Part shown: piece after piece, positions 1,796 through 21,604 of the stretch
Position numbering within the stretch: the stretch's first letter is position 1
Layout of the letters: each line of letters opens with the position of its first letter
NCBI GenBank assembly: GCA_051891855.1
Contig: JBJFFP010000082.1
Span: forward strand, 12,078 to 76,077
Direction of reading: 5' to 3'
Source: Lachnospiraceae bacterium
GTDB taxonomy: Bacteria > Bacillota > Clostridia > Lachnospirales > Lachnospiraceae
DNA: 64,000 nt
Program-made: the position numbers and the translations under genes
Notes under the pieces: generated by a model
What the model was told of the DNA's origin: nothing
What the model saw: only the letters and a program-made list of their open reading frames with translations
Databases searched by the model: none

Positions 1796-1863
1796 GCGAT
1801 TTCCCTTCCTTCTTTTGAATATGATACTTATTATACAATATATTGTGCGATTACTGAAGAAAA

Positions 1864-1919
1864 AGAATAAGCGTCATCCATAGCAGAATAAATGAATTTA
1901 AAGCAACACTTATTCTGCT
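1864..1919. promoter_or_regulatory. Candidate LytTR operator in the agrA/agrB divergent promoter region
   Basis: AGAATAA occurs at 1864-1870 and 1885-1891 (21 bp start to start, the classic AgrA/LytTR spacing). A third inverted copy TTATTCT lies at 1910-1916. AGCAGAATAA (1882-1891) and TTATTCTGCT (1910-1919) form a 10-bp inverted repeat. The context is AT-rich, so a chance match is possible. Confidence 0.3.
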
Positions 1920-1993
1920 AAAATCAACGGTTATTACAAAAATACAGTGAAGCTATTCCATGTATGATAGGATAGGAATAGGAGATTTCGGGT

Positions 1994-2566
1994 ATGGAAA
2001 CAATAGCGTATAAAATTGTAAAATATCTAGGCGATGACCAAGATTATTGGAATGATATTGAGCGAATGCATATGATGTTAGGTATCCAAATATTACTTCA
2101 TAATGCTATTATGCTTGGAACGATTCTTTTCGTGGCAAAAATCATTGGTATACTGATAGAGGCATCTATCCTTTTACTAGCATATGGGATAGTTAAAACG
2201 TCTGCAGGTGGGATACATTTTAAAAAGAGTTCATCTTGTCTTATCGGTACTGGGACATTTGTGGGAGTAGGCGTTTGGATCTCCCGACAATTAAACATAA
2301 TATTATGCCACATTATTATTATATATATAATTTGCCTTATTATTCTGATTATAGTTGGACCGCAAGGAACTGAAAATAATCCTATTTCAGAAAAGCATTA
2401 TAAGAAATTAAAAAAAAGAACTATCTTCTGGATTTTATCATATATGTTCACGACAGTTATAGCGGACATTATGATAAGACGAATTCCGTATTTGTTATTT
2501 ATTGCGGTAGTATTTGAAACGTTATCGCTTTTTCCTCCATATATAAAGAAGAGGGGAATGGATTAG
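1994..2566 (+). CDS. agrB: AgrB-family membrane peptidase that processes autoinducing-peptide precursors
   Basis: 190-aa polytopic membrane protein. GGIHFKKSSSC shows the His-x6-Cys spacing of the AgrB catalytic pair (H77/C84 in S. aureus AgrB). Confidence 0.85.
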   Translation: METIAYKIVKYLGDDQDYWNDIERMHMMLGIQILLHNAIMLGTILFVAKIIGILIEASILLLAYGIVKTSAGGIHFKKSSSCLIGTGTFVGVGVWISRQLNIILCHIIIIYIICLIILIIVGPQGTENNPISEKHYKKLKKRTIFWILSYMFTTVIADIMIRRIPYLLFIAVVFETLSLFPPYIKKRGMD

Positions 2567-2569
2567 CTT

Positions 2570-7771: not shown

Positions 7772-9169
7772 ATGGAAGAGAGAAGCAATCGGGCAAATCC
7801 AATACCGATAGGGAAATTTGCAAAACCACAGGTGAATATTCTGGATGACACCACAAATCTGCAAAAGAAGCTGGCCATTCTCTCAGATGCGGCCAAGTAT
7901 GATGTGGCTTGTACCTCCAGCGGTGTGGATCGAAGCGGAAAGGAAGGGGCAGGTCGCTTTGGAGGCCGCAGTAACAGCGGCGGAACAGGCAATGCGGTAG
8001 CGTCGGGAATCTGCCACAGCTTTTCCGCCGATGGTCGCTGTATCAGCTTGCTGAAGATACTCATGACCAATTATTGTATTTATGACTGCAGATATTGCAG
8101 GAATCGAGTATCCAACGATATTGAACGGGCAGTATTCAGCCCGGAAGAAATTGCCGGACTGACGATGGAATTTTACCGAAGAAACTACATTGAAGGCCTG
8201 TTTTTAAGCTCAGGAGTAATCGGCTCACCGGACTACACGATGGAGCTTCTGTATCAAACCATTTATTTGCTGAGAACGGTACATCATTTTTATGGCTATA
8301 TTCATGTGAAGGGGATACCGGGAGCCAGTCCCCGGCTAATCAGGCAGCTGGGCTATCTGGTGGATCGAATGAGCGTGAACCTGGAGCTTCCAACGGCTCA
8401 GTCGCTGCAGGAGCTTGCACCTAACAAGCATCGCAGGACGATTTTAGCCCCCATGCGTCAGATTCAGGAGGGAATTAAGGAGAATAAACAGGAGCTGGTG
8501 GTATATCGCCATGCCCCTAAATTTGTCAGTGGAGGTCAGTCCACCCAGATGATTATCGGTGCCACACCGGAAAGTGATTATCAGATTGTACAGGTGGCAG
8601 AGAGCCTGTATAAGAAGTTTCAGCTGAAACGGGTATTCTACTCTGCCTTTATTAATGTGAATGAGGATAAGACTCTACCGGCATTAACTTCGGGGCCGCC
8701 TCTGCTTCGGGAACACAGGCTTTATCAGGCAGATTTTCTCATGCGCTTTTACGGGTTTGAAGCCGGGGAGCTTTTAAGTGAGAGGCATCCCAATTTTAAT
8801 GTTTTCCTTGATCCTAAGGCGGACTGGGCTCTGCAGCACCTGGAGCTGTTTCCGGTGGAGATTAACCGGGCTCCCTATGAAATGCTGCTTAGGATTCCCG
8901 GTATTGGAGTAAAGAGTGCAGGAAGGATTGTACGGGCCAGACGAAACGGAAGCCTTACCTTCGAGCATCTGAAGAAAATCGGAGTGGTGCTGAAGCGGGC
9001 ACTGTATTTTATTACCTGTAACGGCAGAATGATGTATCCCACTAAGATAGAAGAGGATTATATTACCCGAAATCTGATGAATGCAGGGGAACGTCTGCCC
9101 TTTGATGTCTCGTCAGTTACCTATCGCCAGCTGTCGCTCTTCGATGACGTAAGCTTTTCCAACGGTTAA
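7772..9169 (+). CDS. Putative DNA modification/repair radical SAM protein (TIGR03916-like)
   Basis: 465 aa. CxxxCxxC radical-SAM motif (CIYDCRYC) and a C-terminal helix-hairpin-helix (LLRIPGIGVKSAGRIV). Paired with the downstream DUF4130 gene, as is typical for this family. Confidence 0.85.
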   Translation: MEERSNRANPIPIGKFAKPQVNILDDTTNLQKKLAILSDAAKYDVACTSSGVDRSGKEGAGRFGGRSNSGGTGNAVASGICHSFSADGRCISLLKILMTNYCIYDCRYCRNRVSNDIERAVFSPEEIAGLTMEFYRRNYIEGLFLSSGVIGSPDYTMELLYQTIYLLRTVHHFYGYIHVKGIPGASPRLIRQLGYLVDRMSVNLELPTAQSLQELAPNKHRRTILAPMRQIQEGIKENKQELVVYRHAPKFVSGGQSTQMIIGATPESDYQIVQVAESLYKKFQLKRVFYSAFINVNEDKTLPALTSGPPLLREHRLYQADFLMRFYGFEAGELLSERHPNFNVFLDPKADWALQHLELFPVEINRAPYEMLLRIPGIGVKSAGRIVRARRNGSLTFEHLKKIGVVLKRALYFITCNGRMMYPTKIEEDYITRNLMNAGERLPFDVSSVTYRQLSLFDDVSFSNG

Positions 9170-9236
9170 AGGAAACTTTGTCTGGCAGGGCAAGCGGAAG
9201 CTAACCCATATTATTCGAGAAAGAAGGAGGGGGAAA

Positions 9237-10013
9237 ATGACAGAAACGATTTTGCTTTGTCAGCCCACCTCGGAGGGGATTCTCACCGGGGTTTACACAG
9301 CCTACGAATGGAAGCTGAATCCCAATACCACGCACCTTCAATTAGGGGAAGTGGAAAACTATCAGCTTTTTTCAGACTACAAAGAGATAAAGACTGACCG
9401 AAAAAAGGCGGTCAAGGTTGACCGAAGTCTTCGCAGAAGGTTCAGCAGCTATACGGTAGAAAGTCTCTGGTATGCCATGGCAAGTGATGATGAAAAAAGG
9501 GGAGATGCAGTTTATCATACCATAGCCCGCGGTCTGGCAGGCGCCTATACAGGGGAGCTGATGTACTATCTGCAGGACCCCTATGTGAATCTTACAGCAA
9601 AGCTTAGGCAGAAGGTCTGTAATGAAGCCCATCATTACAAAGGCTTTGTACGGTTTGCTGAACTGGAGAGCGGAGTATTATACAGCGAAATAGAGCCCCA
9701 GAATGAGGTGCTTCCCTTCCTGGGAGAGCATTTTGCGGATCGCTTTCCGGGAGAAAATTTTATGATCAGGGATAAGGTAAGAGGAATATATCTGGTTCAT
9801 GAGAGAGGAAGAGAATATTATTTATTCCGTGAACAAAAGCCACAGAAGCACCCCCTTCCTTATTCTCATAAGGAAGAACAGATACAGGAGCTGTTTCGCC
9901 GTTTTGTTCACTCTGTCTCCATTAAGGAGAGAGAAAATCTGAAGCTTCAACAGCAGCTGTTGCCTTTACGATTCAGGTCGGATATGATTGAGTTTATGGA
10001 AGAACAAGAGTAG
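9237..10013 (+). CDS. TIGR03915/DUF4130-family putative DNA metabolism protein (partner of the radical SAM protein)
   Basis: 258 aa. The size, position directly after the radical SAM gene and overall sequence character fit the conserved pair. Assigned from memory of the family, not from a search. Confidence 0.7.
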   Translation: MTETILLCQPTSEGILTGVYTAYEWKLNPNTTHLQLGEVENYQLFSDYKEIKTDRKKAVKVDRSLRRRFSSYTVESLWYAMASDDEKRGDAVYHTIARGLAGAYTGELMYYLQDPYVNLTAKLRQKVCNEAHHYKGFVRFAELESGVLYSEIEPQNEVLPFLGEHFADRFPGENFMIRDKVRGIYLVHERGREYYLFREQKPQKHPLPYSHKEEQIQELFRRFVHSVSIKERENLKLQQQLLPLRFRSDMIEFMEEQE

Positions 10014-10023
10014 AGAGGTGCCT

Positions 10024-12498
10024 ATGTCAACGCGGACAACGATTCCAACCAAACAAATACGCATATCAGTCCGCAATCTGGTGGAATTTCTTCTAAGAAG
10101 CGGCGATCTGGATAACCGGGGAAGGATAACGGTGGAAAATGCCATGTTAGAAGGCGGAAGGATACACCGTATGCTTCAGCGGCGTATGGGCAGCGAATAT
10201 CATGCAGAGATACCCCTAAGCTTTCGGGAGGTAAACGAGGAATATGAGATTTTGGTGGAGGGAAGAGCGGACGGGATCATCCTTTTACCGGATCAGATAA
10301 CCATTGATGAAATTAAGGGAACCTATAGAGATTTGGCAAAGATCACAGAGCCTGAGCCGGTACATCTGGCCCAGGCTAAATGCTATGCTCATCTGTATGC
10401 CTGCAGGATTCAAGAACAGAAGGGAGAAGAAGAGTCCGGGAAGAAAATCCAGACACTGCAGAAATTAACCCATTTGGATACCATTCGTGTCCGAATAACC
10501 TATTGTAATATGGATACGGAAGAAACTAAGTATTTTTTTCAGGAATACAGCATAAAGGAATTGAAAAGCTGGTTTGATGACCTTATTAGTCAATATAAAA
10601 AGTGGGCAGACTATCAGGTTCAGTGGGAGGGAATACGACAGAAATCCATCCAGGAATTGACTTTCCCCTATTCCTATCGAAAGGGACAAAAGGAGCTGGT
10701 TTCTGCCGTATACCGAACCATTTACCACGAAAGGAAGCTGTTTTTGGAAGCCCCTACCGGTGTGGGAAAAACACTGTCTACCGTTTTTCCGGCAGTAAAA
10801 GCTGTGGGAGAGGGACTGGGAGACCGCCTTTTTTATCTAACAGCCAAGACCATTACCCGGACAGCCGCTTTGCAGGCCTTTGAACTGCTGATTCACAAAG
10901 GACTGAGGTTTAAAACGATTATATTGACTGCTAAGGATAAAATCTGCTTTCAGGATGAGGTTCAGTGCAATCCGGACAGCTGCCCTTATGCAAAGGGACA
11001 TTTCGATCGAATTAATGAAGCAGTATATGCCCTGATTACCGCAGAGGAGAGCTTTACCAGAGAAATTATTGAAAAGTATGCTGAACAATATCGGGTCTGT
11101 CCCTTTGAGCTGGGTTTAGAGTGCAGCCTTTTTGCCGATGGGATAATCGGTGACTATAATTATCTTTTCGATCCCCATGTTTATTTAAAGCGTTTTTTTG
11201 CTGAAAGAAAAGGGCGAGGGATCTTTCTGATTGATGAAGCCCATAATCTGGTGGAGAGGGGAAGAGAAATGTACAGCGCTTCCTTGATAAAAGAGGATTT
11301 TCTTACGCTGAAAAGGCAGATTAAGCCTTATTGTGCTAAAATAGAAAGACAACTGGAGAAATGTAATCGTCAGCTGCTTTCTCTGAAACGGGAGACAGGA
11401 GGAGTAAAGGAATGGGAAAGCATCGAAGACTTTATTCGTGCTTTAAACCGATTATCCTCCGGGATAGCAGAGTATCTGGAAAATCATAATGATACGCCGG
11501 TCAAAGAGGAGATATTGTCCTTTTATTTTCAGGTTTCTCACTTTCTGCTTATCTATGAGGGAATCCAGGATGAGTATGTGATTTACAGTGAGTTGACTGA
11601 AACAGACAATTTTAAATTAAAGCTGTTTTGCGTCGATCCATCACAAAAATTAAAGAGCTGTATGGATAAGGGAAGAAGCAGTATTCTGTTCTCCGCCACC
11701 TTGCTTCCCATACAATATTATAAGAAGCTTCTGGGCGGGGAAGAAAGGGATTATGAAATCTATGCCCCCACAGCCTTTAATCCTTCCCGGTGCGGCCTGT
11801 TTATTGCACGGGATGTCACCAGCAAGTATTCTCGCAGAGGGCCGGAGGAATATTATCGTATTGCCTCCTATATCCATCAGATTGTGAAGGAAAGGCAGGG
11901 CAACTATCTGGTTTTCTTTCCCTCCTATCAAATGCTGGAGGAAATCAGCAGAATTTATGAAAAAAGCTTTAATCAAAAGGGAGAGACAGAATGCCTGAAG
12001 CAAAAAGAATTTATGAAAGAAGAAGAAAAAGAAAATTTTTTGAAACATTTTACAGGTAATCTGCATCTAAAGGTAGAAAAGCATTTTATGCCGTCGGCGA
12101 AGACAGAGGAAAAGAGTCTTCTGGGCTTCTGTATTATGGGAGGAATTTTCGGTGAGGGAATTGATTTAAAGGAAGACAGTCTGATCGGTGCCATTCTGGT
12201 GGGAACAGGGCTGCCCCTGGTCTGCACTGAACGGGAAATTCTGAAAAAATACTTTCAGGAACGAGAGGGGATGGGCTTTGAGTATGCCTATCGCTATCCC
12301 GGAATGAATAAGGTTTTACAGGCTGCAGGAAGAGTAATTCGGACGAATCAGGACTTGGGGATCGTAGCTCTTTTGGATGAGCGTTTCCTTCAGCATAGCT
12401 ATATCAAAATGTTTCCCAGGGAGTGGAAGGAATACCGCAAGACGGGAATTGATACCATTTCCCATGAAGTGGAAAAATTCTGGAATGAATGGTTGTAG
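10024..12498 (+). CDS. Fusion of a PD-(D/E)xK nuclease domain with an XPD/DinG-family (Rad3-like) Fe-S DNA helicase
   Basis: N-terminal nuclease motifs: EGRADGI, IDEIKGT and QAKCYAHLY. Helicase motifs: Walker A EAPTGVGKT and DEAH box LIDEAHNL. Four Cys fit an XPD-type 4Fe-4S insert (ICF, QCN, SCP, VCPFE). ATG at 10024 follows SD AGAGGTG, 11 nt after the DUF4130 stop. Confidence 0.85.
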   Translation: MSTRTTIPTKQIRISVRNLVEFLLRSGDLDNRGRITVENAMLEGGRIHRMLQRRMGSEYHAEIPLSFREVNEEYEILVEGRADGIILLPDQITIDEIKGTYRDLAKITEPEPVHLAQAKCYAHLYACRIQEQKGEEESGKKIQTLQKLTHLDTIRVRITYCNMDTEETKYFFQEYSIKELKSWFDDLISQYKKWADYQVQWEGIRQKSIQELTFPYSYRKGQKELVSAVYRTIYHERKLFLEAPTGVGKTLSTVFPAVKAVGEGLGDRLFYLTAKTITRTAALQAFELLIHKGLRFKTIILTAKDKICFQDEVQCNPDSCPYAKGHFDRINEAVYALITAEESFTREIIEKYAEQYRVCPFELGLECSLFADGIIGDYNYLFDPHVYLKRFFAERKGRGIFLIDEAHNLVERGREMYSASLIKEDFLTLKRQIKPYCAKIERQLEKCNRQLLSLKRETGGVKEWESIEDFIRALNRLSSGIAEYLENHNDTPVKEEILSFYFQVSHFLLIYEGIQDEYVIYSELTETDNFKLKLFCVDPSQKLKSCMDKGRSSILFSATLLPIQYYKKLLGGEERDYEIYAPTAFNPSRCGLFIARDVTSKYSRRGPEEYYRIASYIHQIVKERQGNYLVFFPSYQMLEEISRIYEKSFNQKGETECLKQKEFMKEEEKENFLKHFTGNLHLKVEKHFMPSAKTEEKSLLGFCIMGGIFGEGIDLKEDSLIGAILVGTGLPLVCTEREILKKYFQEREGMGFEYAYRYPGMNKVLQAAGRVIRTNQDLGIVALLDERFLQHSYIKMFPREWKEYRKTGIDTISHEVEKFWNEWL

Positions 12499-12537
12499 CT
12501 TGTCCTAAAGTAGGATATACTGAACAGGAACGACAGA

Positions 12538-12731
12538 TGTGGATAGTAATGCTTTTGTAACCATATTTTGCTTAAAATTATCTTGAAATTGCTATTATGA
12601 CATGTATGTCATAGGTATTGACACTGATTTTATACACCTTAGACAGGTGAAAAGCTGTGGATAACTATGTGGAAACGGTGGATTTCTCTAAAAAAATAGT
12701 TTTTTTTAGTTTTCCACAGAGTTATCCACAG
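12538..12731. promoter_or_regulatory. Cluster of DnaA boxes arranged as a 21-bp near-perfect inverted repeat
   Basis: Two perfect boxes: TGTGGATAA at 12656-12664 and TTATCCACA at 12722-12730. Two boxes with 1 mismatch: 12538-12546 (TGTGGATAG) and 12710-12718 (TTTTCCACA). One box with 2 mismatches: 12668-12676. Arms 12655-12675 and 12711-12731 match 20/21 as an inverted repeat around an A7/T8 tract. Confidence 0.6.
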
Positions 12732-12809
12732 GTATATGGAAATGATTGGGAAAAATAGTAAAAATACCGCATCAGTCAATACATATTATGTAAACTTGGA
12801 GGACGAGTT

Positions 12810-14120
12810 ATGTGGGCTTATGAAAGTGTGTTCTATCAAATCTATCCCCTGGGATTTTGCGGGGCTCCCTTCGACAATGACGGAGTGCTGAATCACCGTA
12901 TTTTAAAGGTGGAGGAGTGGATTCCTCATATAAAGAAGCTGGGGTGTAATGCCATCTATTTCTCTCCTGTTTTTGAATCCGATACTCATGGCTATAACAC
13001 CAGAGATTACCGGAAGCTGGACTGCCGTCTGGGGACCAATGAGGATTTTAAACAGGTTGTGGATAAATTGCATCGGGAAGGGATAAAGGTAGTTCTGGAC
13101 GGAGTATTCAACCATGTGGGAAGGGGCTTCTTCGGCTTTCAGGACGTGTTGAAAAACAGATGGGATTCTCCCTATAGAGACTGGTTTCATCTGGACTTTA
13201 ACGGCAACTCCCCTTATCAGGACGGATTATATTATGAAGGCTGGGAGGGCAACTACGATTTGGTGAAGCTGAATCTAAGGCACGAGCCGGTAATTCAGTA
13301 TCTTTTTGAAAGTATAGAATTGTGGATTAAGGAATTTGATATCGATGGGCTTCGATTGGATGTGGCCTACTGTCTGGATCATGACTTTGTCCGCCGACTG
13401 CGCAGATTTTGTGAGGAGAAGAAGCAGGATTTCTTCCTGCTGGGAGAAATGCTTCACGGAGATTATAAGGTGCTGGTAAACCATGAGATGCTGCATTCGG
13501 CAACCAATTATGAGTGCTATAAGGGCCTCTATTCCAGCTTTAACAGTATGAATATGTTTGAAATCAATCATTCTCTGCTGCGCCAGTTCGGGCCGGAGGA
13601 TTGGACTTTATATCGGGGAAAGCATCTGCTTTCCTTTGTGGATAATCATGACGTAAGCCGGATTGCCACCATACTGCAGAATAAAGCCCATCTTCCTCTG
13701 GTTTATGCACTTGCCTTTGGAATGCCGGGGATTCCCTGTGTCTATTACGGCAGTGAGTGGGGAGCCAAAGGAGATAAGAGTCAGGGAGACCCTTCCCTGC
13801 GATTAAGCTACGAAGCACCCCTTTGGAATGAACTGACGGAGTTTATTTCCCGGCTGGCAGAAGCAAAGAAAAATTCTCATGCTTTGAATTACGGCAGCTT
13901 CCGCTCGGTAGTATTGACCAATAAGCAGTGTGTTTTTGAGAGAAAAGCAGAAGGAGAAAGGGTGCTGGTAGCCATAAATGCGGACAGTGAAGCTTATACA
14001 GCCCATTTTGATGCAGGCTGCGGCAGGGCAGTGGATTTACTTACCGGCAGTGAACATGATTTCGGCGGAGGAAGTCTTTTGCCGGGCTATAGTGCATTTT
14101 TCTGGAAATGTGAAAGATAA
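12810..14120 (+). CDS. Cytoplasmic GH13 alpha-amylase-family glycoside hydrolase
   Basis: 436 aa with no signal peptide. GH13 regions DGVFNH, GLRLDVAY, GEMLH and FVDNHD. Confidence 0.85.
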   Translation: MWAYESVFYQIYPLGFCGAPFDNDGVLNHRILKVEEWIPHIKKLGCNAIYFSPVFESDTHGYNTRDYRKLDCRLGTNEDFKQVVDKLHREGIKVVLDGVFNHVGRGFFGFQDVLKNRWDSPYRDWFHLDFNGNSPYQDGLYYEGWEGNYDLVKLNLRHEPVIQYLFESIELWIKEFDIDGLRLDVAYCLDHDFVRRLRRFCEEKKQDFFLLGEMLHGDYKVLVNHEMLHSATNYECYKGLYSSFNSMNMFEINHSLLRQFGPEDWTLYRGKHLLSFVDNHDVSRIATILQNKAHLPLVYALAFGMPGIPCVYYGSEWGAKGDKSQGDPSLRLSYEAPLWNELTEFISRLAEAKKNSHALNYGSFRSVVLTNKQCVFERKAEGERVLVAINADSEAYTAHFDAGCGRAVDLLTGSEHDFGGGSLLPGYSAFFWKCER

Positions 14121-14135
14121 AAAGGATAGAATACA

Positions 14136-15044
14136 GTGAAAAAAAAGTTAGTAAGAAGAAAAAAAGGAAGGCCAAATATAAGACAGGATAAGATTAAGAG
14201 AAAAAGCTTATTGTTTCTTTTGCCCAGTGTTTTGGGTGTGCTTCTCTTTTTTGTACTCCCATTCGGTGTGGTAGGCTTTTATTCCGTAGTAAATAATCCG
14301 ATTCAGCATAAATTTGTTTTTCTGGATAATTTTATCAGCGTTTGGAACAATTCAGCCTTTCGTCTGGCTGCGCAAAATACACTGAAGTTTTCGGTTGTCG
14401 CCGTGCCGCTGGCAGTGATTTTATCCATGATAATGGCCTTTGCGCTGGAACAGGCCATTCCCTGGAAAAGTCGTTTTCGGACACTCTTGCTCAGTCCCAT
14501 GATGGTTCCCATTGCTTCGGTAGTATTGATTTGGCAGGTGCTGTTCCATTATAACGGGGTGGTCAATGAGTTTATGCAATACTTTGGCACTAATAAGATT
14601 GACTGGTTTAAATCGGAATATGCACAGGTGATTCTGGTACTTTTGTTTATCTGGAAAAATCTGGGATATAATATGATTCTTTTTATGGCAGCCATCAGTA
14701 ATATCCCTAAGGAAATTATCGAGGTGGCCCAGCTGGAAAGTGCCAGGGGCTGGCAGATATTCTTTTCCATTAAGCTTAGATATCTGTCCTCAACCATTTT
14801 ATTCGTAACGATATTATCCTTAATTAATTCCTTCAAGGTTTTTCGTGAGGTATATATGCTGACGGGAGATTATCCCTTTGATTCCCTGTATCTTATGCAG
14901 CATTTTATGAATAATACCTTTCGCTCACTGGACTATCAGAAGCTTTCGGCAGCGGCAATTATTATGTGCCTGTTCATGATTGTGATTATTGGTATCCTTT
15001 TTTTAACAGAATATTATTTTGGAAAGGATATGGAAGATGCGTGA
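14136..15044 (+). CDS. Carbohydrate ABC transporter permease (MalF/CUT1-type)
   Basis: 302 aa with 6 predicted TM helices, typical of the binding-protein-dependent permease family. GTG start. Confidence 0.85.
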   Translation: MKKKLVRRKKGRPNIRQDKIKRKSLLFLLPSVLGVLLFFVLPFGVVGFYSVVNNPIQHKFVFLDNFISVWNNSAFRLAAQNTLKFSVVAVPLAVILSMIMAFALEQAIPWKSRFRTLLLSPMMVPIASVVLIWQVLFHYNGVVNEFMQYFGTNKIDWFKSEYAQVILVLLFIWKNLGYNMILFMAAISNIPKEIIEVAQLESARGWQIFFSIKLRYLSSTILFVTILSLINSFKVFREVYMLTGDYPFDSLYLMQHFMNNTFRSLDYQKLSAAAIIMCLFMIVIIGILFLTEYYFGKDMEDA

Positions 15045-15951
15045 CCGGATAAAAAGAAGGGTCAGAAAACGGATGACAAAAAAGCTGTGGCTGGGTATGC
15101 TGACCGTATTTCTGATTGTGTTCACGGGGATATTCATTATTCCCATTGTATTTACAATTTGTAATTCCTTTATGGGAAAAGCAGAAATTACTTCCAATTA
15201 CGGAATGATTTTTTCGGTATCAAAAACGGGGGCAAAACAGTTTATTTCGGAAACCGTCAATTTGAAATTTATTCCGGATATGGTTTCCTTCAGCCAGTAC
15301 ATAACCGTTTTATTGAAAAGTCCCGACTATTTGATTAAGTTTTGGAATTCTGTTATTCTGGTGGCGCCTATTGTGGTCTTTCAGCTGGCGGTGGCCTGCT
15401 TGGCCTCCTATGGCTTCACCCGATACAGGGGAAGGGGCAGAGAGATTATATTTTTTTCCTATATTATTCTGATGCTGATGCCTTATCAGGTAACCCTTGT
15501 ACCTAATTTTTTAGTGGCAGGCTGGCTGAATATACTGGATACCAGATGGGCTATTTGGCTTCCGGGAGTTTTTTCACCTTATGCGGTATTCTTGCTGACC
15601 AAGTATATGAGAAGGATACCTTCATCCATGTTTGAAGCCGCTAAAATTGACGGGGCAGGAGAGTGGCAGATTTTTGGGAAAATCTGCTTGCCGCTGTGTA
15701 AAGGGGCCTTAAGCAGTGTGGCAATTCTAGTTTTTATTGATTATTGGAATATGGTGGAGCAGCCGTTGATTCTTTTGTCGGATGAACAGATGCACCCGCT
15801 GTCGGTATTTTTATCCAAAATCAATTCCGGGGAAATCGGTTTGGCCTTTGCAGTGGCAACCATTTATATGGTACCCACTCTTTTGGTATTTTTGTATGGA
15901 GAAGAATATCTGGTAGAGGGTATTGCCTACCAGGGAGGAATAAAAGGATAA
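15037..15951 (+). CDS. Carbohydrate ABC transporter permease (MalG/CUT1-type)
   Basis: Polytopic permease containing AAKIDGAGEWQIF (EAA-loop-like). ATG at 15037 with an AAAGGA SD. The track start at 15019 is a TTG. Confidence 0.85.
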   Translation: MRDRIKRRVRKRMTKKLWLGMLTVFLIVFTGIFIIPIVFTICNSFMGKAEITSNYGMIFSVSKTGAKQFISETVNLKFIPDMVSFSQYITVLLKSPDYLIKFWNSVILVAPIVVFQLAVACLASYGFTRYRGRGREIIFFSYIILMLMPYQVTLVPNFLVAGWLNILDTRWAIWLPGVFSPYAVFLLTKYMRRIPSSMFEAAKIDGAGEWQIFGKICLPLCKGALSSVAILVFIDYWNMVEQPLILLSDEQMHPLSVFLSKINSGEIGLAFAVATIYMVPTLLVFLYGEEYLVEGIAYQGGIKG

Positions 15952-15984
15952 CAGGCCGCCAGGCGGCAGGAATGAGAGGAGACT

Positions 15985-17856
15985 ATGAACAAGAGAAAAG
16001 ACTGGATAAAAAATATTGCGATAATTTTTCTGTCCATCATGCTGGTATTGACTTTTTTTTCCAATAGCATTATGAATTATTCTCTGCCGGAGGTGGCTAC
16101 GGCAATGGTTGAGCCGGGAACGGTTACAGCCAAGATACGGGGAACAGGTACCTTAACGGCAGATGACCCTTACAAGGTGAGTATACAGGAAAGCCGTGTG
16201 ATTGCCAGTGTGGCAGTTAAGGAAGGGGATGTGGTGGAAAAGGATCAGGTACTGTTCTATCTGGAGGATAAGGAAAGTGAGGAACTGAAGGCGGCAGAGG
16301 ATAAGCTGAATGAACTGGTCCTGGCTTATACCACGGAGCTGCTTTCAGGAGATATTTCCCAGCAGTCCTATCAGAATATCCAAAGTGGGAATATTTCGGG
16401 AACAAATACGTATCAGAACCGTATTAACGAGGCCAGACAGAAGGTGGAGAGTGCACAGGCCACAGTGGATTCTCTGGCAAAGCAGATTGCCATTACCACA
16501 GCAGGCGTCAATGACAGTGCGGATAAAGAGACTGCCTTAAAAAATGCGGAAGCGGCAAAGAGTCAGGCGGCAGAACAGTTGACTGCGGCACAGACCAAAT
16601 TGAGCTCTGCCCAAACGGAGCTGGGTGGGTTTGATGCCACTCAATTGACGGACGATAAATTACAGAAGGAACAGGCGGAGGCGACGAGGCAAGCTGAGTA
16701 CGAGAATGCCAGACAGGCCTGTGAAACAGCCATCAATAACCAACTTACCACCCAGGGAAAGAGCCCCATAACCGTGGAGGATTTGGCAAAAAAAAGCAAC
16801 TGGAATGAATACCTGGGGACACTGAGTAAAATCATCGAAGAGATTAAGGCTGGCGGCGGAGCGGATGTATCGGCTGAGCTTACCGCTATGAAAAGTGCCT
16901 TTGAAGTGTACCGGGCAGCAAAGGCAGACCGGGAAAAAGCAGAGACGGAATTGAATCAAAAATACAGCCTGAGTAAACAGCTTCCGCAGCTGAAATCAGC
17001 AGTAAGCAAGGCTCAGAATTATTATGATGAATGCAGTACCCTGGTTCAAAGTCTGACCAATGAGATTAATAACAATACCATTAATGCCAATCAGCAGAAG
17101 GCTAATTTGGACAAAAGCAAAATTGGGGCAGATGAGGCCCTGAAAACAGCGGAAAATGAGCTAAAGCAGCTTCTTACCGATGTGAGCAAGGAGCTGGGGC
17201 TTTCCAATCAGAACAATACCATTCGCGAGCAGCAGAAGGAAGTGGAGAGGCTGAGAGATAAGGCACAGGGAAGCACCATTGTGGCACCGGTGGCAGGAAC
17301 CGTCAGCAGCATCACCAAAACAGCAGGAGAAACCACTGTGCCGGATGAAGCCCTGGTGACTATGCTGCCGGAAGGAAAGGGCTACAGCATGAGCTTTTCC
17401 GTAACTAACGATCAGGCAAAAAAGGTTTCCGTGGGAGATGTGGCCGAGCTGCAAAATTCCTGGTTTTACGGCGATGTGAAGGCCACCCTTACCGCTATTC
17501 GTCCGGATACAGAAAATCCCGGGCAGAAAAAGCTGCTTTACTTTAATGTAGCGGGAGAGGTACAGCCGGGACAGAATATCAGCCTGTCTATTGGACAAAA
17601 AAGTGCTAATTATGACATGATCGTACCTAACAGTTCCGTCAGGGAAGATAAAAACGGTAAATTTATTTTGATCGTGGAATCCAGAAATTCACCCCTGGGT
17701 AATCGGTATATTGCCACCAGAGTAGATGTGGAGGTATTGGCTTCGGATGATGTCAATACAGCAATCAATGCACCGCTATACGGTTATGAGTATGTGATTA
17801 CCACATCAACAAAGCCTGTAGAAGCAGGAAAGCAGGTACGGCTTGCAGAAAATTAG
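15985..17856 (+). CDS. HlyD-family / periplasmic-adaptor-like membrane fusion protein with a very long coiled coil
   Basis: 623 aa. N-terminal TM helix, lipoyl-like hairpin halves (VKEGDVVEKDQVLFYL ... IVAPVAGTVSSI), about 350 aa of Ala/Gln/Glu-rich coiled coil, and a C-terminal beta-barrel-like region. Confidence 0.7.
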   Translation: MNKRKDWIKNIAIIFLSIMLVLTFFSNSIMNYSLPEVATAMVEPGTVTAKIRGTGTLTADDPYKVSIQESRVIASVAVKEGDVVEKDQVLFYLEDKESEELKAAEDKLNELVLAYTTELLSGDISQQSYQNIQSGNISGTNTYQNRINEARQKVESAQATVDSLAKQIAITTAGVNDSADKETALKNAEAAKSQAAEQLTAAQTKLSSAQTELGGFDATQLTDDKLQKEQAEATRQAEYENARQACETAINNQLTTQGKSPITVEDLAKKSNWNEYLGTLSKIIEEIKAGGGADVSAELTAMKSAFEVYRAAKADREKAETELNQKYSLSKQLPQLKSAVSKAQNYYDECSTLVQSLTNEINNNTINANQQKANLDKSKIGADEALKTAENELKQLLTDVSKELGLSNQNNTIREQQKEVERLRDKAQGSTIVAPVAGTVSSITKTAGETTVPDEALVTMLPEGKGYSMSFSVTNDQAKKVSVGDVAELQNSWFYGDVKATLTAIRPDTENPGQKKLLYFNVAGEVQPGQNISLSIGQKSANYDMIVPNSSVREDKNGKFILIVESRNSPLGNRYIATRVDVEVLASDDVNTAINAPLYGYEYVITTSTKPVEAGKQVRLAEN

Positions 17857-17871
17857 AACCGGAGGAGAAGT

Positions 17872-18954
17872 GTGAATAAGTGGAGAGATAAATTAACGGG
17901 AAAGAGGATTTTCCTGTTTGGTGCAGGAATACTCTGTCTGCTTCTTTTCGGAATCATTACTCTGACGGAGAAGACTATCCAAAATGGCCTGTATGATCAG
18001 CAGCTGGCGGCCCGATGGTCGGAAAATAAAGACGTTTCACAGGTCAGTGCCTTTTTTGCGGCAGGAGAAGTAGATGGTCCTGATTATTTTACCGGTATTG
18101 GAATGACTCTGGATAAAAAGCTGACGGAAGCCTCACTGACAGCACCTAATGAGCAGGCCAGATTAAGAATAGATGCCATCAGCATTCCGGGGAAGGTCAC
18201 CTTAAGCAATGGAAGCAGGAGTACAGAGCTTACCGCTTTTGGGGTAAAGGGAGATTTTTTTCAGTTTCATCCCCTTATGCTGTTGGAGGGCTCCTTCTTC
18301 GATTTAAACAGCATGATGCAGGATGGAATCATTATCGATGAAGAAACGGCATGGCAGCTTTTCGGCTCCAGTGATGTAGCGGGAATGCAGGTGATGCTTG
18401 GCCAGGTGCCCCATTATATTTCAGGAGTGGTCAGACGGGATTCCGGTAGGATAGCCGAGGCGGCAGGACTGGATAAATCGGTCTGCTATCTGTCCATAGA
18501 CAGTCTTTTGAAGTATGGCATGGTAAATGGAGGCTACTGCTATGAGGTATTGATGCCAAATCCGGTAAAGGGCTTTGCCCGGACGGCTCTTTCCGAAGCC
18601 TTAGAGGCAGAAAAGAAACAGGTTCATCTTGTAGAAAACAGTACACGGTTTCAAAGCCTGTCACTTTTGGAGATTATTGTCGGCTTTGGAACCAGGAGCA
18701 TGTCGAAGCAGCAGATTATTTACCCTTACTGGGAAAACATGGCCAGAGGCTACGAGGATATTTTTGCCCTGATCCTTATTCTTAAGGCAGTACTGCTGAT
18801 TTATCCTAGTCTATTTGGGGGAATAAGCCTTATTCTTTTTTGGAAGAAAAGACACCGGCCCCTGAGGGAAAAAGTTTTCCGTTTAAGAGAAAAGCTATAT
18901 GATTACAGTGTAAAATTAAACAACCGAAAAAAAGAGGAAGGAAGAAAGAAGTGA
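17872..18954 (+). CDS. Two-TM membrane protein with a MacB-like periplasmic core domain but no complete FtsX TM bundle
   Basis: 360 aa. A TM helix lies near each end. The central region (GIIIDEETAWQLFGSSDVAGMQVMLG) resembles the MacB/FtsX extracytoplasmic domain. GTG start with SD GGAGGAG. Confidence 0.55.
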   Translation: MNKWRDKLTGKRIFLFGAGILCLLLFGIITLTEKTIQNGLYDQQLAARWSENKDVSQVSAFFAAGEVDGPDYFTGIGMTLDKKLTEASLTAPNEQARLRIDAISIPGKVTLSNGSRSTELTAFGVKGDFFQFHPLMLLEGSFFDLNSMMQDGIIIDEETAWQLFGSSDVAGMQVMLGQVPHYISGVVRRDSGRIAEAAGLDKSVCYLSIDSLLKYGMVNGGYCYEVLMPNPVKGFARTALSEALEAEKKQVHLVENSTRFQSLSLLEIIVGFGTRSMSKQQIIYPYWENMARGYEDIFALILILKAVLLIYPSLFGGISLILFWKKRHRPLREKVFRLREKLYDYSVKLNNRKKEEGRKK

Positions 18955-21254
18955 AAAAAAGAATCAGAATGACAGCAGGACTGCTGGCCCTTGCCATGGC
19001 ACTGACAGCCTGTGGCGGACAGAAAACAAAGGAAAATGAAGTTCAGCAGGAATCCCTGTTCAATAAGGAGTATGTTTTCCGGGAAGAAGAATTTGAACTG
19101 ACCGATAATGTGGATAATCTGATGCAGATTACAGTGGTTGGGGATACCATCTATACCGAGGAAGCAAACTATAGCATGAGTGGGGGAGCTGCAAGGCTGG
19201 AAGAAGCTGATACTGGGGAAGAGACGGGGGCTGCCGAAAATGTTGAGGAAGGATATATCCTGGTTTTTACGGCTTATGATCTGAAAGGGAATCAGCTTAG
19301 ACGGTTTGAAAATAAACTTCCTGCTAATTGCGGGCCGGGAAGTATGACTGCAGACAGTCAGGGAAATATTTATTCGGTCTACAGCCACTATGGCACAGGA
19401 GATGATGGAAATGAGGATTATCGGGTATATTTGCAGGGGCACTCTCCGGAGGGCCAGGAGCTGTTTACCCTTTGGCTGAATGAAAACCAGTCTCCGGATG
19501 AATATTATTATGTAAATTCCCTTATCTGTACGGAAGATGGCAGATTGATTCTGGAGTCAGGAAGTACCATAGAAATATATGATTCACAGGGAACTGAGCT
19601 TGGCCGAATTGATAATAAGGAAGGCGGACAGCTGCTGAAAATCAGAGGAGATGTATTTATCACTTTGGAAGGCGATGGTGAGAATGCCTTTTTACAGACC
19701 ATAGACTTGGAAAGCGGCCAAAGGGGAGAAAAGCAGGAGCTTCCTTTTCCCATTTATTCTTATAACTATATGAGCGGTAGCTTTTATGATTTTTATTTAT
19801 CCAATGAAAAGGGGATTTTCGGTTTCAATCTGGGAGATGCAGAGCCAACCATGATTATGGATTTTCTATCCTCAGATTTTGCCAGCTATGGAATGAGCAA
19901 TGTGTCATTTTTGGATGAAGATAATTTTATTGCACTGTATTATGGTGAAGAGGGCTCAAAGCTCAGCCGTTTTGTGAAGATTCCGGCAGAAGAAGTGGTG
20001 GAAAAGAAAGAAATTATCCTGGGCTGCTACTATCTGGACAGTGCGGTAAAAACTCAGGCCATGAAATTTAATAAGGAGAGTAATACTCACCGAATCGTAT
20101 TCATGGATTATTCTGAATATAATACAGAGGAAGACTATACTATCGGTTTAAACAGACTAAATTCGGATATTGCCTCCGGTAAGGTTCCCGATATTGTGGC
20201 ACTGCAGAATGGAATGCCCGTAGAAAGCTATATGGCAAAGGGCTTATTTACCGACTACTATGAGTTAATGGAGAAAGATTCAACCTTTAAAAAGGAAGAT
20301 TATCTGCAAAATGTTTTTGAGGCATATTCCATGAATGGCAAGCTGTATCAGATGGTTCCCAGCTTCTATGTCAGAACGATTGTGGGAAGAACGGAAGATG
20401 TGGGAGAGGATTTCAGCTGGACCATGGATGAGGCTCTGGCTCTTCAGGCCTCCAAGCCGGAAGGAACAGTTCTCTTTACCGATATGATACAGACGGATTT
20501 TTTGGGCCAGTGTCTCTTGAACAGCGGAAATGAGTATATTAACTGGGAAACTGGTGAGTGTAGATTTGATTCCGAAGAGTTTATCCAGATGTTGGAATAT
20601 GCCAAAACTCTGCCGGAAAAATATAATGAAGAGGATTATTTTGATGAGAGTGTCTGGCAGGAAAGAGAAACTCAGTACAGGGAAGGAAAGGCAGTTCTCT
20701 TTCCCACGGTGTTGAGTAGCTTCAACGATTATGGAAATTGGAAATATGCTACCTTTGGAGATGACATAACGATGGTAGGCTTTCCCACTAAGGAAGGAAA
20801 TGGCTCAGCACTGATTTCCAGCTTTAATCTGGCAATCAGTGCACAAAGCGAAGCCCAGGATGTGGCCTGGCAATTTGTAAAGAGCTTTTTAGAGGAAGAA
20901 TATCAGGATAATATGGAGTACTTCTTCCCCATTCGGCTGTCAAGTCTTCAAAAGCAGGCCCAAAAAGCTATGGAAAAGCCTTATTACACCGATAATGAGG
21001 GGAATAAGGTGGAATATGATATGACCTATTATGTGGGCAGTATGGAAATTAAGGTTGATCCCCTGAACAAGGAAGAGACAGACCGGGTTATGGAGTTTCT
21101 GCAAAGTATAAATAAAATCAGCAGCTACAATGATGAATTGTTCAACATTGTGTCGGAAGAGTCCCAAAGCTTTTTACAAGGAGAAAAATCAGCTAAGGAG
21201 GCTGCTGAAATTATCCAAAGCAGAGCAAAAATTTATATCAATGAAAATCGATAA
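18951..21254 (+). CDS. Large lipoprotein: N-terminal repeat-rich (beta-propeller-like?) domain fused to an extracellular solute-binding domain
   Basis: 767 aa with lipobox LALAMALTAC|GG. The C-terminal ~430 aa look like a CUT1 sugar-binding protein. The N-terminal ~330 aa are an extra domain. Confidence 0.7.
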   Translation: MKKRIRMTAGLLALAMALTACGGQKTKENEVQQESLFNKEYVFREEEFELTDNVDNLMQITVVGDTIYTEEANYSMSGGAARLEEADTGEETGAAENVEEGYILVFTAYDLKGNQLRRFENKLPANCGPGSMTADSQGNIYSVYSHYGTGDDGNEDYRVYLQGHSPEGQELFTLWLNENQSPDEYYYVNSLICTEDGRLILESGSTIEIYDSQGTELGRIDNKEGGQLLKIRGDVFITLEGDGENAFLQTIDLESGQRGEKQELPFPIYSYNYMSGSFYDFYLSNEKGIFGFNLGDAEPTMIMDFLSSDFASYGMSNVSFLDEDNFIALYYGEEGSKLSRFVKIPAEEVVEKKEIILGCYYLDSAVKTQAMKFNKESNTHRIVFMDYSEYNTEEDYTIGLNRLNSDIASGKVPDIVALQNGMPVESYMAKGLFTDYYELMEKDSTFKKEDYLQNVFEAYSMNGKLYQMVPSFYVRTIVGRTEDVGEDFSWTMDEALALQASKPEGTVLFTDMIQTDFLGQCLLNSGNEYINWETGECRFDSEEFIQMLEYAKTLPEKYNEEDYFDESVWQERETQYREGKAVLFPTVLSSFNDYGNWKYATFGDDITMVGFPTKEGNGSALISSFNLAISAQSEAQDVAWQFVKSFLEEEYQDNMEYFFPIRLSSLQKQAQKAMEKPYYTDNEGNKVEYDMTYYVGSMEIKVDPLNKEETDRVMEFLQSINKISSYNDELFNIVSEESQSFLQGEKSAKEAAEIIQSRAKIYINENR

Positions 21255-21295: not shown

Positions 21296-21604
21296 TAGAC
21301 AAAGATAACGACAGGGAGGAGTACAAAGTGCTTCTTGCCAGAGAGAGGAGCCCATAGGCTGGAAGGCTCCCCCAAGTAAGGCTTTTGGAAGGTAGCCCTG
21401 GAATCGGAAGGCTGAACAGGACGAGAGGGAATCAGTAGGCTTTCACGGGTCATCTCCGTTATCCGATGGAGCTTTCCGGCTGCCTGCCGGGAACCGAAGA
21501 GACCTTCTTGCGGGCTTGTGTAACGAGCTTCGGGACAGGTGAACAAAGGTGGTACCGCGTTAACTACGCCCTTTGACTGAGTAATCAGTCAAAGGGCATT
21601 TTTG
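21296..21604 (+). promoter_or_regulatory. T-box leader (tRNA-sensing riboswitch) with intrinsic terminator, upstream of valS
   Basis: T-box sequence AAAGGTGGTACCGCG at 21545-21559. AGTA and AGAGA stem-I elements lie near 21320 and 21340. The terminator GCCCTTTGACTGA / TCAGTCAAAGGGC plus T-run spans 21568-21604. Several GUA triplets could be the Val specifier, and I cannot fix which one. Confidence 0.85.

Follow-up and report, generated by a model that had tools for sequence, protein, structure and literature searches.

A conserved triple DnaA-box module beside a helicase gene of Lachnospiraceae: a candidate DnaA-binding control locus outside oriC

We begin by asking what a cluster of DnaA boxes may be doing between a helicase gene and a GH13 gene of a Lachnospiraceae bacterium, at a place where no dnaA gene is found. 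The DNA considered here is a stretch of 64,000 nucleotides (contig JBJFFP010000082.1, called the window below), and the cluster occupies one intergenic spacer of it. A validated DnaA query detects no dnaA gene in the window or in 200 related loci, and the description of the cluster as far from any dnaA gene, given in the initial annotation of the sequence, is true of all of them. To our knowledge, the control of DnaA activity is poorly understood in Firmicutes outside Bacillus, which are without Hda, SeqA and datA, and we found no published data in the literature on this control in the Lachnospiraceae, an abundant family of the gut. The features on which the discussion rests are the following, in window coordinates.

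9988-12498, forward strand: DinG/XPD-family helicase gene (DEAD_2, Helicase_C_2, rad3), the stable upstream neighbour
12538-12546, reverse strand: auxiliary DnaA-box-like 9-mer, reading TGTGGATAG on the forward strand, one mismatch
12598-12611, no strand: TGAC-N6-GTCA palindrome TGACATGTATGTCA, from an inverted-repeat scan
12656-12664, reverse strand: box 1, a perfect DnaA box, reading TGTGGATAA on the forward strand
12668-12676, reverse strand: box 2, TGTGGAAAC, two mismatches
12677-12685, reverse strand: box 3, GGTGGATTT, three mismatches, a sixth box added by comparative conservation
12686-12709, no strand: A/T-rich spacer with an A7/T8 inverted repeat, from an inverted-repeat scan
12710-12730, forward strand: right arm TTTTCCACA-GAG-TTATCCACA, an inverted copy of boxes 2 and 1
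12764-12780, no strand: site 2, ATACC-N6-GTCAAT, an instance of (R)NACY-N6-GTCAAT
12780-12796, forward strand: TACATA-TTATGTAAACT, a motif like the dif centre and XerD arm, 16/17 match to B. subtilis dif
12810-14120, forward strand: GH13 gene, the downstream neighbour in the window and variable elsewhere

The helicase gene stops at 12498 and the ATG of the GH13 gene is at 12810, which agrees with the 311 bp originally given for the spacer. The operon upstream of the spacer is a radical-SAM/DUF4130/helicase DNA-repair operon. Five DnaA-box-like 9-mers had been described in the spacer, two of them perfect and opposed (at 12656 and 12722), together with a 20/21 inverted repeat around a 35-bp loop with an A7/T8 core, and every one of these features is found exactly as first described. 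Box 2 is oriented as box 1 with a 3-bp spacer between them (start-to-start period of 12 bp), while box 3 abuts box 2 directly (9-bp period). The right arm contains TTTTCCACA at 12710, with one mismatch, and the perfect TTATCCACA at 12722-12730; in all, 193 bp hold six boxes, of which two are perfect, two have one mismatch and two are weaker. The arms of the outer inverted repeat (12655-12675 and 12711-12731) are 21 nt long, 95% complementary (20/21) and 35 nt apart, and the inner repeat is formed by CTAAAAAAA (12688-12696) and TTTTTTTAG (12701-12709). The 20-mer TGTGGATAACTNTGTGGAAA occurs exactly twice in the window, once in each arm, against a chance expectation of 0.03.

Is such a density of boxes beyond what the DNA would offer anyway? 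Perfect boxes are over-represented in the window as a whole, with 7 observed and 0.57 expected. The five that lie outside the spacer are all within genes, and three of these (13058, 13637 and 19109) are in-frame Val-Asp-Asn/Lys codons, with the coding strand being the leading strand; one of the three encodes part of the FVDNHD motif of GH13. About two copies of TGTGGATAA are already predicted by an order-4/5 Markov model. The related loci provide a better background than this window-wide count: perfect boxes occur there at 1.57 per kb within 600 bp upstream of GH13 versus 0.069 per kb outside the spacer. In the loci that bear the module described below, the perfect box upstream of GH13 is box 1. 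The flanks of 134 non-identical elements are likewise rich in boxes, with 1.06 perfect boxes per kb versus a background of 0.059, or 3.37 versus 0.45 when up to one mismatch is allowed, and the extra boxes are concentrated at +40 to +80, on either strand.

The next question is which part of the array is kept in other genomes. The conserved unit is the left arm, a triple box of about 30 bp composed of TGTGGATAA, CTN, TGTGGAAAY and an abutting KGKGGATTT, which we write as the pattern TGTGGATAA-N3-TGTGGANNN-NGNGGATT. Of 80 related genomes, 52 carry it with hardly a change, as does the window, and this extends to positions 17-31, which the search left free; all 52 genome loci have helicase homologues upstream. 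An exact-pattern scan of metagenomes finds the module in 120 contigs; 104 of them have enough sequence to the left, and the helicase lies upstream in at least 77 of these. Across loci the flanking helicase proteins are just 45-73% identical, and the remaining spacer has diverged. Both searches (52 loci, 120 contigs) demanded box 1, so its invariance in these sets is by construction; in the nine closest relatives, where nothing of the kind was demanded, it does not vary either. For box 2, the genome search fixed TGTGGA and left the next two positions free, and both are A in 49 of 53 sequences. Box 3 is TGGGGATTT in most relatives, with G22 and the GGATT at 24-28 invariant though search-free. 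Where boxes 2 and 3 depart from the consensus, they do so in an invariant way (AAATTGGGGATTTCT). This constraint is stronger than a degenerate DnaA box would call for, and a second protein may therefore read this stretch. Because parts of boxes 2 and 3 were also prescribed in the metagenome pattern, the survey of other contexts is biased to the triple-box architecture.

The other boxes follow a different course. They turn over between lineages in position and orientation, and yet they stay DnaA 9-mers. At the site of the right arm, relatives have either TTATCCACA with TAATCCACA or TTATCCACA with a flipped TGTGGATAA; the box at 12538 exists as the exact 9-mer only in the window and one relative (L001), and in degraded form in two more (L002 and L004). 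The sequence of the A7/T8 core is kept only in the window and L001, and elsewhere just the A/T richness persists. Selection appears to act on the DnaA-box 9-mer itself, and the boxes of the right arm are predicted to act as auxiliary DnaA boxes. The window lineage has a palindrome because its downstream boxes are an inverted copy of the first two. As to whether the palindrome is conserved in syntenic relatives, then, the left arm is and the full palindrome is lineage-specific. The module is found nowhere in the window besides the two arms, and the suspicion of a repeated element can be set aside there.

The same three-box module is also found away from the helicase, downstream of tsaD (gcp), in 12 contigs of other Firmicutes. 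The end of the tsaD gene is 86-471 bp upstream of the module in 11 of these, and the positions of box 2 that were search-free follow the DnaA consensus (T7 in 15/20, A8 in 15/20). Box 3 is TGTGGATTA or TGTGGATTT in the non-helicase copies. In B. subtilis the corresponding gcp/ydiF position is among the strongest DnaA-binding regions and has a marked ATP-DnaA preference (PMC4447404 Table 1; PMC3245932). The tsaD-linked modules thus share their position with a cluster for which high-affinity, ATP-preferring DnaA binding is proven (PMC4447404).

Around the helicase-linked triple box, the conservation extends over a larger element of about 190 bp. A palindrome of the TGAC-N6-GTCA type, likely the site of a dimeric factor, abuts box 1 at -20 to -11 in 62 of 134 related elements, and its density is 0.96 per kb in the elements versus 0.044 per kb in the background. 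A second conserved site follows the module at a restricted distance: among 144 elements, GTCAA starts 115-119 bp after box 1 in 37 and 125-131 bp after it in 76 (113 in either class), and the two classes are about one helical turn apart. The flanks are enriched 6-8-fold for GTCAAT, TGACAT, TGTCGA and GTCGAA. The motif at 12780-12796 was compared with the B. subtilis dif sequence of PMC3025954, and it matches the XerD arm at 11/11 positions, the centre at 5/6 and the XerC arm at only 5/11; the exact XerD-arm 11-mer has a single copy in the window, and GTCAA-N6/7-TATGTAAAC is present in 28 of 173 elements. With these other conserved motifs in the element, DnaA may be just one player.

Combining these observations, we consider the region to be probably (at about 60%) a conserved DnaA-box cluster outside oriC of the kind known as DBCs in B. 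subtilis, that is, an autonomous site that would capture or modulate DnaA. Its boxes are clustered above background, lie outside oriC and are kept as DnaA boxes. Since the triple-box arm is kept almost letter for letter at this spot across the Lachnospiraceae, a DnaA-binding control locus is most likely, rather than an origin or a sugar-operon switch. As in the B. subtilis DBCs, we see an intergenic multi-box cluster outside oriC, with close boxes in the same orientation and no single regulated gene. Unlike them, the element follows a DinG/XPD-like helicase gene and precedes GH13 or valS, its strong boxes are fewer than the 4-12 predicted sites in Bacillus, and it shows a far stricter family-wide conservation, with extra conserved motifs at fixed spacing. 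The distance to oriC matters for DBC function in B. subtilis; in our data, no helicase homologue was found in closed genomes, and all matches are on contigs of at most 319 kb. The proposal of a DBC-like or datA-like cluster made at the outset is strengthened by the conservation across genera, the box turnover and the tsaD-linked copies, all three of which are directly observed, while its DnaA binding stays a prediction.

It is also conceivable that DnaA binds here for the sake of local transcription, either activating or repressing the promoter of the next gene or acting as a roadblock to read-through from the helicase operon, so that expression would be tied to replication status. No intrinsic terminator after the helicase gene and no clear forward-strand promoter before GH13 were found in the window, and GH13 may therefore be read through the box array. 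A large subclade has the element at a fixed distance of about 163 bp upstream of a good sigma-70 promoter for GH13 (TTGACG-18-TATACT), and DnaA is known to act as a transcription factor at several DBCs of B. subtilis (PMC3245932, PMC4447404). The downstream gene, however, varies while the element is unchanged. The right flank covers 2 kb in 48 helicase-linked metagenome loci, of which 26 have an adjacent GH13 and 19 lack it. The element is still there when valS (with its T-box leader), tig or other genes, such as those of membrane proteins, stand in the place of GH13, and also with a gene inserted between the helicase and the element. In addition, its distance to the downstream start codon runs from 154 to more than 500 bp across loci, it extends right up to the ribosome-binding site in the window clade, and the tsaD-linked copies and the B. 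subtilis gcp/ydiF cluster follow 3' gene ends. By its distribution, the element appears to behave as an autonomous unit. The early suggestion of a DnaA-controlled promoter specific to the GH13/ABC operon fails on the loci where GH13 is absent, and a local transcriptional role in general is possible and in our view somewhat unlikely. One can instead keep the conserved sequence and give up DnaA: the 30-bp block, TGAC-N6-GTCA and GTCAAT would then form a composite operator of one or more other regulators, for example Spo0A-like, sporulation or cell-cycle ones, with the identity to DnaA boxes coincidental or secondary. Conservation beyond the degeneracy of a DnaA box (with GGGGATTTCT as the candidate recognition part), the resemblance of the enriched flank motifs to the Spo0A box TGTCRAA, and the helically phased distance of site 2 from the module all agree with this. 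But every copy has the exact DnaA consensus as box 1 (as the searches required), the sites that are gained and lost are DnaA boxes and not copies of the whole block, and the three-box arrays downstream of tsaD, a DnaA-bound position in Bacillus, have no TGAC or GTCAAT motifs. An unrelated regulator, which the initial annotation had offered as an alternative, is a poor account of the boxes and may fit the TGAC-N6-GTCA palindrome and the GTCAAT site; as an explanation of the whole it is quite unlikely.

Two further readings start from the symmetry of the window rather than from the module. The 21-bp palindrome could itself be functional, as a DNA cruciform or as a hairpin of a leader RNA. The region as single-stranded DNA does have a stable fold (-24.5 kcal/mol, z = -8.7), and the inner eight pairs are kept in all ten close relatives; these pairs, however, amount to no more than two DnaA boxes in opposite orientation. 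In L006-L009 the outer arm is interrupted, only one of the 21 pairs is changed on both sides in the ten-sequence alignment (whose covariation score is matched or exceeded by 74 of 500 shuffles), more distant relatives lack the inverted copy and carry the second box in direct orientation at +75, and Rfam gives no match to the palindrome. With the outer arm lost, no compensatory changes to make up for it and the A7/T8 core confined to two sequences, the cruciform-forming site once suggested is largely refuted as the functional unit, and we hold the palindrome reading to be highly improbable. A replication origin (secondary, relic or that of an integrated element) would likewise make use of the opposed box pairs, which in the window flank a 35-bp A/T-rich core as DnaA arrays may flank an unwinding region. 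The order of a strong box, a gap of 3 bp, a weaker box and a G-rich tetramer also recalls the tandem-box part of the basal unwinding system, that is, DnaA-box#6/#7 of the B. subtilis origin, where the gap is at most 3 bp and a short G-rich stretch follows (PMC8287927). The element nevertheless differs from that origin in having no DnaA-trios, no dnaA/dnaN found nearby and no skew switch, and its orientation to the A/T segment is wrong: by the E. coli R1/DUE geometry, in our own reading, both arrays face outwards from the A/T core. Neither array has three or more successive DnaA-trios beside it, and direct reading gives at most two consecutive trio-like triplets beside box 1 (definition of PMC8287927). 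GC skew is positive to either side in the window and 48 relatives, the A/T core is not conserved, and plasmids, phages and viral contigs yield nothing similar. An origin is scarcely credible here, and the non-origin DnaA-box cluster remains our preferred reading.

Several narrower candidates were also tried and rejected. A dif/Xer site with both arms fails at the XerC arm, and a terminus position at the GC skew, which has no switch in the window and 48 relatives. Karaboja and colleagues are said to have described, in 2021, XDS sites (XerD-only) that have no good XerC arm, as is the case with 12780-12796. This adjacent motif is the only likeness to dif or XDS of B. subtilis; it is not at a GC-skew switch, it is limited to the minority of elements counted above, and XerD binding to it is putative. 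The GH13/ABC block is not a 'dif module' between two Xer sites, its downstream end holding only the valS promoter and T-box. The partial cre-like sequence pointed out earlier inside the palindrome, TGGAAACGGTGGAT, misses 4 of the 10 specified positions of TGWAANCGNTNWCA, and its central CG is TT in 44-47 of 53 relatives, so it is dropped. Rfam shows nothing above noise for 12300-13000, and its one gathering-level match in the whole window is the valS T-box. A mobile-element origin or repeat has no match in viral contigs, plasmids or phages. The open reading frames of the spacer are just 20-51 aa long and none is preserved by the indels of relatives, which leaves no small protein gene, and a reverse-strand promoter that would use TTGACC as -35 has no conserved -10 position.

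How would the DnaA-box cluster work? In our proposal DnaA would first bind the perfect box 1 (12656-12664) as the nucleation site, and a short head-to-tail oligomer would then form over the weaker boxes 12 bp and 9 bp further on (12668-12685). One or two boxes 40-80 bp downstream would add DnaA across the A/T-rich and probably bent spacer, and the locus would store DnaA or regulate how much of the initiator is available, with the neighbouring factor sites possibly reading this out. Both the DnaA binding and any effect of it on the initiation of replication are what we infer from the sequence comparison.

Such an arrangement may have a counterpart in E. coli, where at datA and DARS2 a small core of DnaA boxes is combined with a binding site, fixed in position, of an accessory protein that bends DNA (IHF; Fis at DARS2). 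The box core here is similarly at a fixed and phased distance (~117 or 127 bp) from the second conserved site, with the A/T-rich spacer between them. There is no sequence homology between datA or DARS2 and the element, however, and GTCAAT does not fit the IHF consensus; Firmicutes, as far as we know, are without IHF. A bolder reading takes the whole ~190-bp element as a cell-cycle control locus found throughout the Lachnospiraceae and undescribed in Firmicutes, with TGAC-N6-GTCA, the triple box, the movable auxiliary boxes, the phased GTCAAT and, in some lineages, the XerD-arm motif as its parts. They would build a datA/DARS-like nucleoprotein complex, in which DnaA would be captured or remodelled jointly with another site-specific factor (a sporulation regulator, perhaps, or XerD). 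We regard this as unlikely; if true, it would tie initiator availability to sporulation or chromosome organisation.

For the Lachnospiraceae, the locus is a precisely defined and extremely conserved candidate DnaA site, and thereby a concrete target for ChIP, footprinting and deletion. The eye-catching palindrome would be a lineage-specific by-product rather than the functional unit. The architecture of three boxes is simple and also occurs at the tsaD/gcp position that is common with Bacillus, which suggests that a strong box, 3 bp, a weaker box and an abutting box make up a high-affinity unit for DnaA oligomers that can be used again at different loci. From the fixed spacing of the other conserved motifs one may suspect accessory factors, and if these are confirmed, the element would represent a new type of regulatory complex rather than one more DnaA-box cluster.

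We begin by considering the 311-bp spacer between the helicase and GH13 genes, for which the initial annotation described a cluster of DnaA boxes and a palindrome; the boxes, the arms, the inner repeat and the spacer length are all confirmed.

Genes, DnaA boxes and palindrome of the window
1037-3958, agr-like quorum-sensing cluster (LytTR response regulator, AgrB, GHKL histidine kinase), upstream of the element
7772-12498, radical-SAM (TIGR03916) / DUF4130 (TIGR03915) putative DNA-repair pair, then the helicase
9988-12498, DinG/XPD-type helicase gene
12538 and 12710, DnaA boxes with one mismatch
12655-12675 and 12711-12731, palindrome arms
12656, perfect DnaA box TGTGGATAA
12668, DnaA box with two mismatches
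12722, perfect DnaA box TTATCCACA
12810-14120, GH13 gene
13058, 13637, 19109, 37630 and 47158, perfect boxes beyond the spacer, all in genes, all TGTGGATAA on the leading, coding strand
21299-21576, T-box leader (Rfam RF00230, 96.7 bits), upstream of valS (21624-24269)

A repeat finder gives arms of 21 nt, 95% complementary and 35 nt apart, with the inner repeat CTAAAAAAA/TTTTTTTAG between them. The 20-mer TGTGGATAACTNTGTGGAAA is confined to the two arms in a scan of the window (chance expectation 0.03), and the DNA hairpin of the palindrome is highly stable (-24.5 kcal/mol, z = -8.7).

The window is part of a Lachnospiraceae chromosome. The gene order TIGR03916-TIGR03915-helicase upstream of the element (the conserved region of about 190 bp that holds the boxes) is kept in many relatives, and the GH13 protein is 99% identical in L001, a Lachnospiraceae MAG. 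Downstream of GH13 follow ABC-transporter genes, valS with its leader, folC, spoIIAB-sigF, spoVA genes, tmk, the pst operon and others. Because GC skew is positive across the entire window, almost all genes lie on the + strand and a validated DnaA query finds no DnaA gene in the window, the element is neither oriC nor terminus. At the left end of the window, where the agr-like cluster lies, G+C is lower (0.34-0.39). Further downstream, a 592-aa protein (44823-46601) carries SfsA domains (OB fold and nuclease), a MutY-like HhH-GPD glycosylase and NUDIX_4, and gives the impression of two DNA-related proteins fused in an unusual way.

Perfect boxes are over-represented in the window as a whole (7 against 0.57 expected). 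The three copies checked for frame, at 13058, 13637 and 19109, are in-frame Val-Asp-Asn/Lys codons on the coding strand, that at 13637 being part of the GH13 FVDNHD motif, and a higher-order Markov model alone predicts about two copies. The window-wide count thus carries little weight, box counts across this genome being inflated by coding sequence, and the comparative data are the strong argument.

With the GH13 protein as query and one genome per species, we obtain 80 loci, of which 52 carry a perfect TGTGGATAA upstream of GH13. Every locus that bears the module (three head-to-tail boxes, at 12656-12664, 12668-12676 and 12677-12685 in the window) and has sufficient left flank has a helicase homologue upstream; among the 28 loci that lack the module, only L051 has one. 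The conserved unit is the extended left arm of the palindrome, TGTGGATAA-C-T-N-TGTGGA-A-A-(T/C)-(T/G)-G-(G/T)-GGATT-T-C-T, in which positions 10 and 17-31, left free in the search pattern, are invariant or nearly so over 53 instances. Read as DnaA boxes, this is a perfect box 1, a 3-bp spacer, box 2 as TGTGGAAAT/C and an abutting box 3 as TGGGGATTT or GGTGGATTT. In 43 more distant module-bearing loci the helicase protein has diverged to 51-61% identity and the spacer outside the module is unalignable, so the module is under strong constraint.

The palindrome as such is not conserved in syntenic relatives. In the nine closest relatives the place of its right arm is still occupied by DnaA boxes, in differing forms, and more distant relatives have TGTGGAAAA in direct orientation at +75.

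Boxes at the right-arm place in close relatives
L002, TTATCCACG and TTATCCACA
L003-L005, TTATCCACA and TAATCCACA
L006-L009, TTATCCACA and flipped TGTGGATAA

The A7/T8 core occurs in the window and L001 only. Among ten aligned sequences the outer arm is lost and the inner pairs alone are retained, which are simply two opposed DnaA boxes; a base-pair count on this alignment shows no significant covariation, the observed score being reached in 74 of 500 shuffles. A cruciform, as initially proposed, thus finds no support. A structured RNA is rejected as well.

With the module's own boxes left out of the count, perfect boxes reach a density of 1.06 per kb in the flanks of 134 non-identical helicase-linked elements, the background being 0.059; with up to one mismatch allowed, the densities are 3.37 and 0.45. 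Most of the extra boxes fall between +40 and +80, in both orientations. These auxiliary sites shift and flip yet stay the same 9-mer, as expected of binding-site turnover for one protein, and the unit under selection is, judging from the sequences, the DnaA box. In the lineage of the window the palindrome arises because boxes 1 and 2 recur, duplicated in inverted orientation, as the auxiliary boxes.

A metagenome scan with TGTGGATAACTNTGTGGANNNNGNGGATT matches at least 120 contigs; since box 2 and box 3 are partly fixed in the pattern, the frequency of other architectures cannot be read from it. Among the matches listed, 104 contigs have sufficient left flank, and 77 of them carry a helicase homologue (45-70% identity) upstream; in at least 60 of these 77, no more than 300 bp separate its end from the module. 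For the 48 listed helicase-linked contigs with 2 kb of right flank, the next gene is GH13 in 26 and not GH13 in 19; where GH13 is absent, valS with its leader, a trigger-factor-like gene, a glycosyltransferase, membrane proteins or others follow. Several genomes have an extra gene between helicase and element, such as the divergent AP-endonuclease-family gene of L054. That the element survives rearrangement on both sides argues against an operator specific to GH13, and its survival without GH13 leaves the suggested GH13/ABC promoter unsupported; a cre site, also suggested initially, is rejected.

About 20 of the matches listed lie outside the helicase context, and in 12 of these tsaD (gcp; Pfam TsaD, E = 8.7e-92) is upstream, ending 86-471 bp before the module in 11 of the 12. 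In both tsaD-linked contigs examined (L117, L149) murC follows. Rich DnaA-box clusters including the triple box lie downstream of tsaD in L117, L149, L154, L181 and eight further metagenome loci, and the tsaD-linked clusters include abutting boxes with a 9-bp period. In the non-helicase copies the positions left free by the pattern fit the DnaA consensus (box 2 as TGTGGATAC, TGTGGATAT or TGTGGATAA; box 3 as TGTGGATTA), and additional abutting box pairs occur at -51 and -42. One of the eight high-affinity DnaA-binding regions of B. subtilis lies downstream of gcp and ydiF; it is among the six non-origin DnaA-box clusters and favours ATP-DnaA 16-fold at low DnaA concentration (PMC4447404; PMC3245932). 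Of all the indirect evidence, this parallel together with the non-helicase copies speaks most strongly for the three-box array as a DnaA-binding module. The shared position suggests that the gcp/ydiF cluster is ancient in Firmicutes.

The larger element has further motifs.

Companion motifs in the window
12598-12611 (element copy), 38784-38797 and 60723-60736, TGACA-N4-TGTCA palindrome
12780-12796, dif-like motif TACATATTATGTAAACT (TACATA-TTATGTAAACT), just before the GH13 ribosome-binding site

The three copies of TGACA-N4-TGTCA compare with 0.04 expected. Of 134 elements, 62 have the form TGAC-N6-GTCA directly next to box 1, at -20 to -11; its density is 0.96 per kb in elements against 0.044 in the background. 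Site 2, (R)NACY-N6-GTCAAT, recurs in helicase-linked elements, its GTCAA starting 115-119 bp after box 1 in 37 of 144 and 125-131 bp after it in 76; these classes, about one helical turn apart, point to a face-of-helix constraint on DNA, not RNA. GTCAA-N6/7-TATGTAAAC occurs in 28 of 173 elements, L114, L137 and L138 among them, and is present both in the window clade and in valS-adjacent clades. Compared with the central region and XerD arm of the dif site in B. subtilis (PMC3025954), the dif-like motif agrees in 16 of 17 positions. A complete dif site is rejected, the XerC arm matching at only 5 of 11. We take the motif to resemble the XerD-only sites (XDS) of B. subtilis; it is not at the terminus, since GC skew is positive on both flanks of 48 elements. 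Element flanks are enriched 6-8-fold in GTCAAT, TGACAT, TGTCGA and GTCGAA, hexamers similar to the Spo0A box TGTCRAA.

Directly after the dif-like motif begins an 8.5-kb GH13/ABC-transporter block (12810-21254), which in the window separates the element from valS; in relatives including L114 and L137, valS and its leader lie within about 0.6 kb after the element. The block is odd in composition (two permeases, HlyD-like, MacB_PCD-like and a 767-aa solute-binding protein), and a search of its far end gave no second Xer-like site.

On every feature that can be computed, the element agrees with the non-origin DnaA-box clusters of B. subtilis, a likeness read from sequence that bears out the original suggestion of such a cluster. 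From an origin or basal unwinding system it differs in having no DnaA-trios, the wrong orientation, no skew switch and no dnaA. The box core with its phased, putative accessory site is reminiscent of E. coli datA and DARS2, to which the element has no homology. We put the probability that the element binds DnaA as a cluster and captures or modulates the initiator at about 0.6; binding by itself is highly probable, and the non-origin capture or modulating function, the likeliest one in our view, has at best an even chance when taken alone. DnaA would nucleate at perfect box 1 and spread head-to-tail onto boxes 2 and 3, the 12-bp and 9-bp periods leaving hardly any gap. The weak boxes would be filled cooperatively, with ATP-DnaA preferred, as in the Bacillus clusters, and auxiliary boxes 40-80 bp off could bring in more DnaA across the A/T-rich spacer.

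A local transcriptional role, as a roadblock to read-through from the helicase operon or in control of the downstream promoter, is less likely but a serious rival; consistent with it, neither a terminator after the helicase nor a clear promoter ahead of GH13 was found in the window, and in one subclade a good promoter follows the module at a constant distance of about 163 bp.

For Lachnospiraceae, a literature search yielded no work on DnaA boxes. Non-origin DnaA-box clusters are already known; what is new here is a family-wide member at a new position, whose three-box core is unusually rigid and whose companion motifs are uncharacterised. A datA/DARS-like complex, with accessory factors brought in by these motifs, is quite improbable; if true, it would make the finding considerably more interesting.
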